DNA of 64,000 nt, from sequence record PP620640, one strand, 5' to 3'. A program made the position numbers and the translations under genes. The notes under the pieces are model-generated. The model did not search any database, was not told the origin of the DNA, and saw nothing but the letters and a program-made list of their open reading frames with translations. Origin of the DNA: Escherichia phage fKMPT1. Shown here one piece after another: positions 28,962-33,361 of the stretch (the stretch's first letter is position 1; the number at the start of each line of letters is the position of its first letter).

Positions 28962-29195
28962 TTAAAATGATAAGTCAATATTGATACGTTCACCCTTAAG
29001 GACTCCTGTACGGTCCCTTGCAATCTTACCGTCAACAATAAGGATATGCGCAGACCTTAAAGATTCACTATTAAAACCTTTTACGAACTTACTAGGCATA
29101 ACTACAATAAGCATCTCTTGAATCAACTCTGGAGTGTAGCAGTTGTCGTGAAGTTGCTGAATAACGTCTGCAAGTGTCATTTTTGATGTCTCCAA
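28962..29195 (-). CDS. Small protein, paralog 1 of a two-member family
   Basis: 77 aa; alignable over full length with 29383..29601 product (shared ...DGKIA(R/K)D(R/K)TG.LKGER(I/V)NI...). Confidence 0.45.
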   Translation of the reverse strand: METSKMTLADVIQQLHDNCYTPELIQEMLIVVMPSKFVKGFNSESLRSAHILIVDGKIARDRTGVLKGERINIDLSF

Positions 29196-29386
29196 TACTC
29201 AATGTCAATAAGTTCTTGTGCAATGCTTTTCAGATTACCTTTCAAGAAAACCTTCTCAGAATCTGAAAGAGATGAATTGTCAATTAACCTGTTCATTCTC
29301 TCAAACAACTTCTGCTTACGATTCTTGATAGTTTCCTTTGAAGCACCTTTCATCATCGCTGCATGGGTTCTTCCACGGTGGCTCAT
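29177..29386 (-). CDS. Small basic protein
   Basis: 69 aa, Lys/Arg-rich. Confidence 0.35.
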   Translation of the reverse strand: MSHRGRTHAAMMKGASKETIKNRKQKLFERMNRLIDNSSLSDSEKVFLKGNLKSIAQELIDIEYWRHQK

Positions 29387-29601
29387 AGTAAAGTCTCAAT
29401 GTTTACACGCTCACCTTTTAAGTAGCCTGTCTTGTCTTTTGCGATTTTGCCTCCAGCAATAAAGATATCAACTCTACGTAGAACTTCAGGGTTTACCTTC
29501 AAATTCCTACAGCTACTGCAAAGAACAATAAACATCCCTTCAATCTCTTTTTGAGAGTAACCTGCACATTGCAACTGAACTTCAATCTCTGAAAGCGTCA
29601 T
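29383..29601 (-). CDS. Small protein, paralog 2 of a two-member family
   Basis: 72 aa; paralogous to 28962..29195 product. Confidence 0.45.
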   Translation of the reverse strand: MTLSEIEVQLQCAGYSQKEIEGMFIVLCSSCRNLKVNPEVLRRVDIFIAGGKIAKDKTGYLKGERVNIETLL

Positions 29602-29652: not shown

Positions 29653-30156
29653 TCAAGATAGTTTTGCAAACTCTCCGTGGAGTTTTATAGCAGCTTCACA
29701 GTAAGCTTTATGGGCTTCTTCAGGTGTATCAAATAGACCAAGTGATGACCTTTTACCTCTGCATGTTATAGTCGCCCTCCACTTATTGCAGTCTTTAAAG
29801 TAATGAACACCCTTGTAACCTGATTTGTTAGTCGTCTGCTTTACCCTGTTTTGAGCGTTTCCATATTTATCGGTCTCCCTAAGATTAGAAATGTGATTAT
29901 TACTCCTGTTGCCATCAATGTGGTCTATCATCTTAGTAGGTTTGTAACCATGCTCAAACCACCAAACAAGGTGATGCACTTTTATTACAACATCTTTGAA
30001 TTTAAGCACTTTGTAACCATAAGCATCACTTCCTCCGGCAACCTGACCAGCTTTAGCTTGTCTATTCCTATCATACCTGTTGTAGAAGACCCCTTTATCG
30101 GGGTCGTAAATAAAGTTGTCCTTGTAATCTTGAAGTGTTAGTGAACGGCGTACCAT
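29653..30156 (-). CDS. HNH homing endonuclease with AP2-type DNA-binding domain
   Basis: 167 aa; HNH_3-like motif MIDHIDGNRSNNHISNLRETDKYGNAQNR and AP2-like SGYKGVHYFKDCNKWRATI...LGLFDTPEEAHKAY; immediately downstream of intron-containing polymerase gene. Confidence 0.75.
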   Translation of the reverse strand: MVRRSLTLQDYKDNFIYDPDKGVFYNRYDRNRQAKAGQVAGGSDAYGYKVLKFKDVVIKVHHLVWWFEHGYKPTKMIDHIDGNRSNNHISNLRETDKYGNAQNRVKQTTNKSGYKGVHYFKDCNKWRATITCRGKRSSLGLFDTPEEAHKAYCEAAIKLHGEFAKLS

Positions 30157-30689
30157 GTTTTACCTACCTTACCAGTACCCGTGACAAGTGTCTTACTCTT
30201 TAATCCAAGATTTTTTGATGCTTGACCATACATTCTATCAATAATCTCCTTAACATCTGGTACAGCTTTTGTTGGAACCTCTAAAGAAACTTCGTCGTGG
30301 TAACTACAGACCCATCTAGCACCAATAGCTGGTTTCCTACCATTTAGAACTGTAAGTTTTCGCTCTGTTAACTCTCTATTAGCCAAGTTAATCCCCTCAT
30401 TCTGTACCTGCGCCTCACTACCCATGAGTGTGAAATTCAATAACTTATGTGGAGATTTACACCATAACCACGCTCCAGCGACTTTGATATAACCACCTTT
30501 GGCAATTGCAGAAGTTTTTCCAAAAACCTCTTCAAGTGCTTTCTTAGTTGCTTTGAAGTCTTCCTCTAACCTATCAAGCAGCTTTTTAATCTTAGGTAGA
30601 CGTACAAAGTAAGTTTGTTTAGTCAATGCACCTTCTTCCGTAGATGATGCCTTGATAGTTTTTGCAAACTTCTCGTCTCCAGCACCGAA
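30138..30689 (-). CDS. DNA polymerase, family A (T7-like), exon 2 (5' boundary approximate)
   Basis: Contains FGAGDEKFA (second half of motif B, cf. T7 YGAGDEK) and motif C YHDEV; no in-frame ATG or RBS at its 5' end, stop codon 4 codons upstream. Confidence 0.65.
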   Translation of the reverse strand, partial: FGAGDEKFAKTIKASSTEEGALTKQTYFVRLPKIKKLLDRLEEDFKATKKALEEVFGKTSAIAKGGYIKVAGAWLWCKSPHKLLNFTLMGSEAQVQNEGINLANRELTERKLTVLNGRKPAIGARWVCSYHDEVSLEVPTKAVPDVKEIIDRMYGQASKNLGLKSKTLVTGTGKVGKTWYAVH

Positions 30690-30965
30690 CAATACATCTG
30701 GTCAATACACTCGCAAGGTGTACCAGTTCTCTTATGAACTTCTCCGCATTTCTACGGAGTGTCGGACTATATCACGTAGCAGGATGCTACCGTTGCACTT
30801 GGGAATGGTCATTAGCTTACCACCCTACTCTACTCAGTTCATACGTTAAGTATGCTTTTCGATAGTCTCTGAACGTTCCTCTCAAGAGGCTTCGCTGCTG
30901 ATTACCGTATCTTCTCAGACTTAGGCTTCCAGCAATTCACAACGTTTTACATGCGCCACTGACGC
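30690..30965 (-). mobile_element. Group I self-splicing intron (ORF-less) in DNA polymerase gene; boundaries approximate
   Basis: On minus strand, in order: P-like gaattgctggaagcc (~30924-30938), Q-like aatcagcagcg (~30893-30903), R-like gttcagagactat (~30862-30874), S-like gatatagtccgac (~30761-30773) giving P7 GACTAT/ATAGTC; P9-like hairpin ctccgtagaaatgcggag; possible P1 pairing exon tttaT with intron Gtaaa; interrupts motif B of polymerase. Confidence 0.75.
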
Positions 30966-33104
30966 ATAAATGCCATTTTTGGCTTTCTTACGACCTTTTG
31001 TAATCTCGTGGAGAAGTTCCTCATCCTGTGTATACCTACAACGAACAATATCTTCTTCCTTGTTCAGACCAAAGTAAATACTGTTCAGTGTATGTGCATC
31101 AGTACCTGTGTATACTTCATAGAGGTCATTCTCAGCATCATAACGAAGGTACTTGTCAGTTTCTGGATTGAGGTACTTATCAAGATGCTTGCAATAGTAT
31201 CTTCCATCCTCTTGCTTGGTAAATTCTACTGACTCTTTACCTTGTGTTACCGCTTTAGTGAACTCTTCATCACCCATAAAGTTACAAAGAAGAACTAGCT
31301 GTGCTGAGTTTTGGTCTACAGAGATGATATCTGTCCCCTCTTCACAAGTCCACACCTCCCTCATAGGTGCTCCATAGACAGCAGCACCAGACGGTACGTT
31401 TACAATACCATATTGTGTCATACGTCCAGTTGAAGTACCAAATACCATTGCACCAGCACTAAGGCGACCATCAGGACGAATCTGGTTCAACCAACCTTTT
31501 TCATCATCCTTTGAGTTCTCAATAGTTCTGCGTCGGTGCATCAAAGTATAGTACTTAGCAATCTTCTGTCCAAGCTCACCTTCAATCGTATCATAAGATG
31601 ATTCAGTAAGTTTTGGTGAAGTACGGATTAAGCAAGGTTCAAGCAAATCTGTGTATTTCTTCACAGACCAGTTATGTTCAATGTACTGGACACCTTCATG
31701 TTCAACATAACTCAAACCACACCTTTCAACCATCTCATCCCACTTAGGATGCTTTGTAATCATCTTTTTGTTGTCTTTGAAACGACAAACTTTGACAGGA
31801 CGACCATCTGAGTCTTTCTTGTAGTTCCAGTCATCTGGAATCCAACCAACTGATTTCAAATAGTCTTTCACAACTGCTACCTGAGTCATACGAGAAACTT
31901 CGAACTCAATTGGTGTATATGGTGCATCAATCAAACCTGTGTAGCGACTTGACTCAAGCTCAAAGTGGTTAACAACATGGCTGTTATAGTACTTCACAGT
32001 TTTAACTGTTTTTACTGGCTTCCAATCTTTGCACTTCTTACCAATCTTTGCATTCAACTCATTGCAAATTGCACGAGCATCCTTCATTGCTACAAAACCT
32101 TCCTTGTACTCTTCACCAGTTACAGAGTTGGTTGGTGTATAGCAATTCCGCTTTTCAATGTTAAAAATCTTTGTAGTTGGCTTACCAAATGGCTTGATTT
32201 CATATGTCTGCATCTCACCGTTACGTACCTGCTGACGATACTTTGTCTTAGGGTACTTGGTAATTCTCTTCAGTCCATCTGCGTGACCAAATGCTTCAAC
32301 ATACTCATTCCAAGCTTTTGCAAACTCTTCTCCAGTGACTTTAACTTTGGTCTTGATAGTTGGAGGAAGATGTGGTTCAACTTCTGAAGCAAGCTCATTA
32401 GTCAACTTGTCAAGTTCCTTTACATGGAACTCCATAAGCTCTTTATCAGCTTTCCAACCATTGATAGCTTGTTGACTCATCCAGAAAGATGTTTCTTTAG
32501 CTCGCATGTAGGTTTCATAAGTATCTACGCCACACTTCTTCAGCTTGAGATATTCATTATCCAGTGCACGTTTAGTTTTGGCGTTAATACGGATATCTTC
32601 TACAACACGAGTGAAGATTTCTGCATTCCACACACCCCAATGTTCAATCTCTGGTTTACGTACACCGACACGAGCACCCCATGCAGCCAAGCCATGAGCA
32701 CCTTTATAGCCTTTTGGAGTTGGTCTATCCATCCATTGAACACGAGATTGGATAAGAGAATCCTGAAAGAAATTACTCCACGGCTTACACTTTGGATTAT
32801 CAAAGTTCCACAAATCAGGTGCAATGTGATTGAAAACCCACCAGTCATACCCCAGACCATTATGGATGCAAAGTCGTTTTGCCTTTAACGCAAACTCAAC
32901 ACCTTCACGCAAGCCACCCTTAATGTACTTGGTATACTTGTGACCGAGGATAGGCTCATCTGTAAAGACCCATACAGGTGGCTCTTCATCGTCAGATTTA
33001 TAGTCTGCGAAAGCCATTACGTGTACTTTAGTGAACTCAAGGAGTAAACCATCAGTTTCTGTATCGCCAACTAAATGTAAGTTTTTAAAATCTACGTTTT
33101 CCAT
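30966..33104 (-). CDS. DNA polymerase, family A (T7-like), exon 1 (3' boundary approximate)
   Basis: 3'-5' exonuclease Exo I motif VGDTETDGL; motif A-like DQNSAQLVL; ends in RKKAKNGIY (first half of motif B); likely true start at second in-frame ATG (MENVD) preceded by GAGGGAG RBS. Confidence 0.75.
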
Positions 33105-33361
33105 TTTTACTCCCTCTAAAATCATTAACCACATACATTACTGCAAAAAATTATAAAAAGCAAGTTGACAATGTACTTGACAAGGTGTTAATCTTTGCGA
33201 AGTGGGTTTTTACTTAAAAGGTTACTTAACAGTTTAACTATACAGATACTTTAAAACTCTTAAAAGATTATTTAATAGTTTTTAAAAAGCTTTAAAGTAT
33301 AACGTATAGAATACGTTAAGATAAAAGATTAAAACTTAATAGTTACTTAAAAGAGGCTTAC

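Follow-up and report, generated by a model that had tools for sequence, protein, structure and literature searches.

The family A DNA polymerase gene of Escherichia phage fKMPT1 is distributed over two open reading frames, which raises the question of whether the enzyme is made as two polypeptides or whether the gene is interrupted by an element that leaves its RNA. The DNA analysed here is a 64,000-nt stretch of record PP620640 (the window), for which an earlier note had proposed a compact group I intron, without an ORF of its own, inside motif B. The ORF list bears out the arrangement that it described, with two minus-strand polymerase ORFs at 30921..33134 and 30138..30692. The upstream ORF ends in ...AKNGIYASVAHVKRCELLEA*, and the downstream one reads MFGAGDEK from a TTG start. 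The downstream half had been said to lack both an ATG and a ribosome-binding site, and on inspection we saw no Shine-Dalgarno-like sequence upstream of the TTG. Salmonella phage fBSPA4 (OR711204.1) matches region 30100-33200 with 100% identity and at the same positions, and about 259 records of Felix O1-like phages (genus Felixounavirus) match it at 90-97% identity. In the fBSPA4 GenBank record, the minus strand has two CDSs in succession (30921-33125 and 30138-30692), each labelled 'putative DNA polymerase', and then a 'putative HNH endonuclease' (29653-30156, minus strand).

Intron boundaries and the restored polymerase

In Felix O1 and P219 the polymerase CDS is uninterrupted and 2721 nt long, and an alignment with these phages revealed exactly 267 extra nucleotides in the window. 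We scanned both strands of the 64-kb window with the covariance models of 4227 Rfam families, the type of check that the earlier note had suggested for RF00028, and obtained one match only: RF00028 (Intron_gpI) at 30742-31024 on the minus strand, over the full model (1-253), with E = 1.1e-12 and a score of 59.9 bits, where the gathering score is 50. RF00028 was still the sole match in the window at E ≤ 0.1 with permissive filters, and sister copies of the intron score 59-63 bits. The conserved core elements P (gaattgctggaa), Q (aatcagcagc), R (gttcagagactat) and S (gatatagtccgac) lie on the minus strand in the order in which the note had given them.

We placed the intron boundaries at 30961 and 30695 because this is the sole placement that combines a U at the exon end, a terminal G in the intron and the protein of the intronless alleles. 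With these junctions, the last base of exon 1 is T30962 (...AAA AAT GGC ATT TAT GCG T), the first base of exon 2 is T30694 ((T)TA TTG TTC GGT GCT GGA GAC...), and the intron runs from CAGUGGCGCAU at its 5′ end to ACCAGAUG at its 3′ end. In keeping with the splice-site rules, the exon-end U is paired to a G in P1 and the intron terminates in G. The exact junctions are thereby a comparative and rule-based placement; the Rfam alignment, which agrees with our drawn model for P3-P9, wrongly puts P1 into exon 1. The interval first proposed, 30690-30965 with junctions given to within about 15 nt, lies within 5 nt of 30695-30961. Its exon ends, ...GIY and FGAGDEK, were partly right: motif B is split as claimed, but the ends themselves are not exact, as three codons (A-L-L) lie between them.

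Splicing at 30961/30695 gives a CDS of 2721 nt that encodes 906 aa, with 898 of 907 aligned positions identical to the P219 polymerase (stop codon counted). The exonuclease domain, the thumb and the fingers through the first half of motif B are encoded by exon 1, and the second half of motif B and motif C by exon 2. Across the junction the spliced protein reads KNGIYALLFGAGDEK (...GRKKAKNGIYA-L/LFGAGDEKFAK..., with the slash marking the insertion site), the junction peptide predicted from splicing is NGIYALLFGAGDEK, and at the nucleotide level the predicted junction is ...TATGCGT/TATTGTTC. The insertion point follows the first base of the Leu722 codon, and the junction peptide is identical in uninterrupted alleles. 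The spliced C-terminal region aligns with residues 517-701 of T7 DNA polymerase as a single stretch that crosses the junction (GRKKAKNGIYALLFGAGDEK vs TRDNAKTFIYGFLYGAGDEK), which puts the insertion site at T7 F528, within the O-helix and motif B. We take T7 R518/K522/Y526/Y530 to be equivalent to Klenow R754/K758/F762/Y766, so that the site would correspond to approximately position 764 of E. coli Pol I.

There is no ORF of 40 aa or more wholly inside the intron on the strand of the gene, and the P6a loop is 4 nt long. An Rfam score above the gathering threshold, an exact 267-nt presence/absence polymorphism, a restored 906-aa frame and a full secondary structure together support the reading of the interruption as a compact ORF-less group I intron within motif B of the family A DNA polymerase gene, as had been proposed. 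We also considered an intein, which is excluded by the in-frame stops, and translational bypass or frameshifting, which is unnecessary given the ribozyme evidence. The two polymerase CDSs in the GenBank record are an annotation artefact, because the predicted spliced mRNA encodes one polymerase of 906 aa. The coordinates of all features are given in Table 1.

Table 1. Features of the polymerase locus in window coordinates; helices are those of the proposed ribozyme model.
Feature	Position	Strand	Evidence or detail
DNA polymerase exon 1	30962..33125	minus	Annotated CDS start 33125; colinear with the uninterrupted P219 and Felix O1 polymerases
Predicted group I intron, 267 nt, ORF-less	30695..30961	minus	RF00028, 59.9 bits; 267-nt insertion relative to intronless alleles
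In-frame TAA	30921..30923	minus	13 codons into the intron; ORF ends ...GIYASVAHVKRCELLEA*
DNA polymerase exon 2	30138..30694	minus	Pfam DNA_pol_A profile positions 218-380
P1	30951..30967	minus	Exon AUGCGU (30967-30962) / guide GCGCAU (30956-30951); 6/6 pairs, invariant in six variants
P10 5′ strand	30957..30961	minus	Intron nt 1-5 CAGUG / exon 2 UAUUG (30694-30690); 5/5 standard pairs, two of them G.U
P3 5′ strand	30938..30944	minus	CGUUGUG; partner UGCAACG at 30797-30791
P4	30896..30934	minus	UGCUGG/UCAGCA, classical P and Q elements; encloses P5 and P5a
P6/P6a minimal hairpin	30873..30895	minus	CCUC-UUGA-GAGG; HK3 alignment; compensatory C-G to U-A
P7 5′ strand	30862..30867	minus	GACUAU in element R; partner AUAGUC (30770-30765) in element S
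P7.1 and P7.2	30801..30854	minus	P7.1 30854-30840; P7.2 30825-30801; between P7 and the P3 3′ strand
P8 hairpin	30776..30790	minus	GUAGCA-UCC-UGCUAC; compensatory C-G to U-A; length varies in the loop only
P9, P9.1 and P9.2	30700..30759	minus	P9 30759-30742; P9.1 30739-30726; P9.2 30724-30700
Synonymous cluster	30684-30970 (spliced CDS nt 2157-2178)	minus	Intron-plus vs intronless alleles
Free-standing HNH_3 + AP2 endonuclease gene	29653..30156	minus	Pfam HNH_3 E = 3.7e-12; AP2 E = 1.5e-10

Ribozyme model and predicted splicing

In the proposed model, the intron folds with a P3/P7 pseudoknot and without P2, and the U.G wobble of P1 is located at the 5′ splice site. The P7 pairing of GACTAT with ATAGTC and the P9-like hairpins that the note had sketched both appear in the model, the latter as P9, P9.1 and P9.2; its internal guide, in which Gtaaa would pair with the exon end tttaU, was wrong, as P1 is formed by AUGCGU and GCGCAU. 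P9.2 is followed by AGAUG, which closes with the terminal G at 30695. The P5a loop of the window intron is of the GNRA type (GAGA), and is GAGA, GUAA or UAAA across variants. The stretch that forms P7.1 and P7.2 is an insertion in the Rfam alignment. The presence of these extra helices between P7 and the P3 3′ strand is diagnostic for subgroup IA and assigns the modelled intron to it. Subgroup IA2 is defined by P7.1 and P7.2 in this position, joined by G-U-A (PMC3428280); the window intron has both helices and a GUA directly before P7.2, but its linker is 14 nt long (AACUGAGUAGAGUA).

We compared the model across six distinct intron variants (fBSPA4, tootiki/Meda, REP5, HK3, GEC_vB_BS and SP4), with P6a inserts masked. 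Each of the 77 pairs in the model is a standard pair in every variant (462 cells, 100%), and in a control in which the 3′ partners were slid by 1-3 columns pairing fell to 27-49%. Only two stem positions vary, both by double compensatory change: a C-G pair is replaced by U-A in P6a in three sequences and in P8 in two. The remaining variable columns fall in the loops of P5a, P6a, P7.1 and P8, in the P5/P5a internal loop and in a P7.2 bulge, and the single indel among the six variants is in the P8 loop. As the copies share 96-99% identity, covariation is limited to two compensatory pairs, and with a sample this small and closely related the comparison appears supportive of the structure rather than statistically strong. 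Plain minimum-free-energy folding gave a z-score of -1.39, which is weak and does not discriminate; an unremarkable score of this kind is usual for pseudoknotted ribozymes.

On this evidence the element is very probably a working ribozyme that splices itself out of the polymerase pre-mRNA, which would then encode a single 906-aa enzyme. The polymerase gene would be transcribed as one pre-mRNA, in which the intron would fold into a canonical P1-P10 ribozyme. An external guanosine would then attack after exon U30962, held in P1 by the guide GCGCAU, P10 would align exon 2, and attack by the freed exon 1 behind the terminal G30695 would give an mRNA for the 906-aa polymerase; unspliced RNA would give a truncated protein that stops at the TAA 13 codons into the intron. 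We infer catalysis in vivo, as we do any mobility, and a search of the full-text literature found no report of experimental splicing or homing of this intron in any Felixounavirus. It is very improbable that the polymerase is truly split, with a dead intron remnant between two polypeptides of 737 aa and 184 aa that are translated separately and then assemble. GenBank does annotate two CDSs in fBSPA4 and many relatives, and the TTG could in principle start the second ORF, but two separate chains would leave the O-helix broken between Y720 and F724, no ribosome-binding site was seen before the TTG and the uninterrupted alleles encode the same junction peptide. Moreover, the core elements are all intact and every pair is kept across variants, with compensatory changes, which argues for selection on the RNA rather than decay.

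Allelic states in Felixounavirus and relation to known introns

The intron sequence is present in 96 phage records, all of them Felix O1-like whatever their names, among the approximately 259 with the polymerase region, and the identical site is found in four states. It is empty in approximately 163 records, including Felix O1, P219 and wV8-like phages. An ORF-less form of 267-268 nt occurs in at least 44 of the 96 intron-bearing records, for example in fBSPA4, tootiki, Meda, REP5-12, the BPS17 series and SPJ41. At least 18 relatives, including HK3, JH2, VpaE1, Si3 and SP4, have a form of 802-805 nt with an ORF of 160-161 aa in the loop of an extended P6a stem, which is the usual location of phage intron ORFs (PMC3428280). 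The HK3 ORF matches Pfam Endonuclease_7 (E = 6e-20); RF00028 at its gathering threshold misses the HK3 intron, presumably owing to the insertion of approximately 540 nt, and homology was shown by alignment instead. In a few phages (GEC_vB_BS, NJ12 and Mushroom), a footprint form of 311 nt keeps the long P6a stem and has lost the Endo VII-type ORF; in Salmonella phage GEC_vB_BS (MW006475) it lies at 1501-1811 of the extracted locus L008. These footprint alleles are clearly deletion derivatives of the ORF-containing form. We rejected the same simple origin for the ORF-less form of the window: no single clean deletion in the HK3 stem yields its minimal P6a, and the two differ by a compensated pair. 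Since one deletion step from the ORF-bearing stem does not produce it, the minimal P6a may be ancestral or an older derivative.

Several records with the locus are unusual. In GEC_vB_BS, exon 2 runs only as far as ...GAGDEKFAK and continues directly into the final approximately 22 codons of the HNH-AP2 gene (L008 1812-1906), with most of exon 2 lost, motif C included; either the genome is defective or the assembly went wrong at a short repeat. Three records named for other phages, MG065664 and MG065668 (Campylobacter phages A132 and A126) and GU169904 (Staphylococcus phage SA1), contain Felixounavirus polymerase sequence at 95-97% identity, and both Campylobacter-named records also contain the intron. 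Contamination, chimeric assembly or mislabelling is the likely source of these oddly named records. Separately, the N4-like Erwinia phage MIF8 (PP700702) has an unannotated group I intron (L010 2455-2702; RF00028, 94.4 bits) between the CDS of an 'RNAP2-like protein' and the next ORF, and its core has 74.6% nucleotide identity to positions 15-138 of the window intron.

Group I introns have been known in phage polymerase genes since SPO1 (1990), and the present intron is itself already known: it is annotated and in print for sister phages, and it is ordinary in kind. The genome announcement of Meda in 2019 described an intron without an HNH gene in the DNA polymerase gene (PMC6486253). The Meda polymerase CDS (GenBank MH586731) is a two-piece join, and the Meda intron is 97.4% identical to that of the window; in fBSPA4, unlike in Meda, no intron is annotated. 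The Meda protein spliced at the corresponding junctions had no exact match in the protein collection. Fang et al. (2018) listed the Endo VII-motif proteins of JH2, EC6, FSL SP-010 and 2 JES-2013 as intron-encoded (PMC6083498), and introns detected with Rfam were reported for the SPJ41 genome in 2023 (PMC9951933). The novelty implied by the earlier note does not hold, as the same intron had been annotated as spliced in Meda and mentioned in print (PMC6486253), and its endonuclease form listed (PMC6083498). The Felix O1 paper of 2010 reported no introns (PMC3185647), which is correct because Felix O1 has the empty allele.

The window intron shares gene, site and ribozyme with the ORF-less intron of Meda and with the introns of Escherichia phage JH2 and Salmonella phage FSL SP-010, which contain an Endo VII-type ORF, at 96-99% identity; it differs from its sister copies in a P8 loop that is 1 nt shorter and in a P5a loop of GAGA rather than GUAA. 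The T7-like phages PhiI and W31 have group I introns in the polymerase gene at Pol I position 881 (Bonocora & Shub 2004, summarised in PMC3428280). Like these, the present intron comes from a phage of a proteobacterial host, interrupts a family A polymerase and is of subgroup IA with P7.1 and P7.2, and the endonuclease ORF, when present, is in P6a. Unlike these, which lie at site 881 in motif C and encode an HNH endonuclease (I-TslI), it lies at approximately 764 in motif B, and the endonucleases of its Felixounavirus relatives are of the Endo VII/DHHRN type, the window copy being ORF-less. The polymerase introns of SPO1, SP82, Bastille and Pf-WMP3 are at site 674 and that of phiL7 is at 676 (PMC3428280); they differ from the window intron in insertion site and in carrying nicking HNH endonucleases, although the Pf-WMP3 intron likewise lacks P2. 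We found no nucleotide similarity to these five introns beyond the ribozyme core.

Exon flanks, mobility and the neighbouring nuclease gene

Alleles with the intron (fBSPA4 and tootiki) and intronless ones (P219 and Felix O1) are set apart by nine substitutions in a 22-nt stretch that has the insertion site at its centre (GGCATTTATGCGT/TATTGTTCGGTGCT vs GGCATCTACGCC/CTGTTATTTGGAGCC). All nine are synonymous, and the background difference across the gene is 2.9%. Splicing constraints explain part of this pattern, because positions -6 to -1 and +1 to +5 are the partners of P1 and P10; the changes at +8, +11 and +14 are not explained by P1 or P10 and may mark an endonuclease target or a co-conversion tract. 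The exon flanks AUGCGU/.../UAUUG are identical in all seven intron-bearing loci that were extracted, and none of the intronless alleles in a spread sample of 294 matching records has intron-type flanks.

The window intron lacks the homing endonuclease of its own that characterizes a mobile group I intron, and without such a gene it could not home autonomously. It is possible, though we would not favour it, that the ORF-less intron is mobile in trans, with the Endo VII-type endonuclease (DHHRN family) of ORF-containing copies cutting intronless alleles during co-infection and either form of the intron serving as the repair template. At least 18 relatives have this intron in the identical position and, within it, an Endonuclease_7 ORF, the proteins of JH2 and FSL SP-010 have been classed as intron-encoded homing endonucleases (PMC6083498), and trans-homing of ORF-less or defunct introns has been documented in T4-type phages (PMC2790892, PMC3984707). 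The nine clustered synonymous differences also look like the signature of a target site or of co-conversion, but they could instead reflect the pairing requirements of P1 and P10, and copies without the ORF are no rarer than those with it. Otherwise, the intron is simply inherited and shuffled by general recombination.

A second potential source of a nuclease is the free-standing HNH-AP2 gene directly downstream of the polymerase gene, which overlaps the polymerase stop by 19 nt and encodes a candidate trans-acting nuclease. This slot holds three divergent alleles in different Felixounaviruses (L006 3825-4337 and L007 3829-4362 in relatives) and is empty in HK3 and SP4. The fBSPA4-type and Meda-type proteins are 40% identical and share an identical C terminus of 22 residues (EEAHKAYCEAAIKLHGEFAKLS), and conservation of the final approximately 80-150 nt of the gene extends to further records. 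This pattern suggests cassette replacement with a fixed 3′ boundary. The absence of the HNH-AP2 gene from HK3 and SP4 had prompted the idea that it and the intron-borne endonuclease are mutually exclusive, which we rejected, as both are present in Si3, SBA-1781, SPT-1, DE7 and FM4b. Two small minus-strand ORFs lie nearby, at 29383-29601 (72 aa) and 28962-29195 (77 aa); they look like paralogues (…GGKIAKDKTGYLKGERVNIE vs …DGKIARDRTGVLKGERINID), and relatives differ in how many copies lie in the polymerase-ligase interval.

We consider it improbable that the intron collaborates with this gene, such that the nuclease would cut intronless alleles near an insertion site approximately 540 bp away while the intron protects its own genome and is co-converted. 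The HNH_3 + AP2 gene does abut the polymerase gene, which is the adjacency expected of a collaborative-homing pair; the arrangement parallels the published cases of T3 gene 5.3 with PhiI and of S-PM2 F-CphI with psbA (PMC3984707, PMC6083498), and the divergent alleles of the slot with their conserved 3′ end are suggestive of an active mobile cassette. However, the gene co-occurs with every intron state, so its association with the intron is not specific: 15 of the 17 records with the fBSPA4-type allele are intronless, and the Meda-type allele is found alongside ORF-less, ORF-containing and intronless polymerases. Because of this co-occurrence, the comparative data speak neither for nor against collaborative homing. 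The locus resembles T4 nrdB/I-TevIII with MobE (PMC2790892) and S-PM2 psbA with F-CphI (PMC6083498) in having an intron without a working endonuclease beside a free-standing endonuclease gene, and differs from both in that the neighbouring nuclease gene is not specifically associated with the intron state.

These findings can be drawn into one broader reading, which we regard as rather doubtful. One genus and one site may preserve every stage in the life cycle of a mobile intron (empty, bare ribozyme, invaded by an Endo VII/DHHRN endonuclease, and footprint), with a swappable HNH-AP2 cassette next door. The window intron would be a pre-invasion ancestor or a trans-mobilized 'hitch-hiker' rather than a decayed relic, the synonymous block would be both endonuclease target and immunity determinant, and motif B would be a fourth independent insertion site in family A polymerases beyond the three in PMC3428280.

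The main use of the analysis is an annotation fix: in the record of fBSPA4 and in dozens of others from its relatives, one spliced gene is entered as two 'DNA polymerase' CDSs, and sometimes as 'hypothetical proteins', which is relevant to the curation of phage-therapy genomes and to comparisons of gene content. The biological addition is small, as group I introns in polymerase genes are long established and this one had been noted in sister phages. What is added is a precise model of the splice sites and structure, an insertion site in motif B that differs from all three listed for polymerase genes in PMC3428280, and a natural allelic series within one genus that is suited to experiments on the invasion and loss of homing endonucleases in easily grown coliphages.
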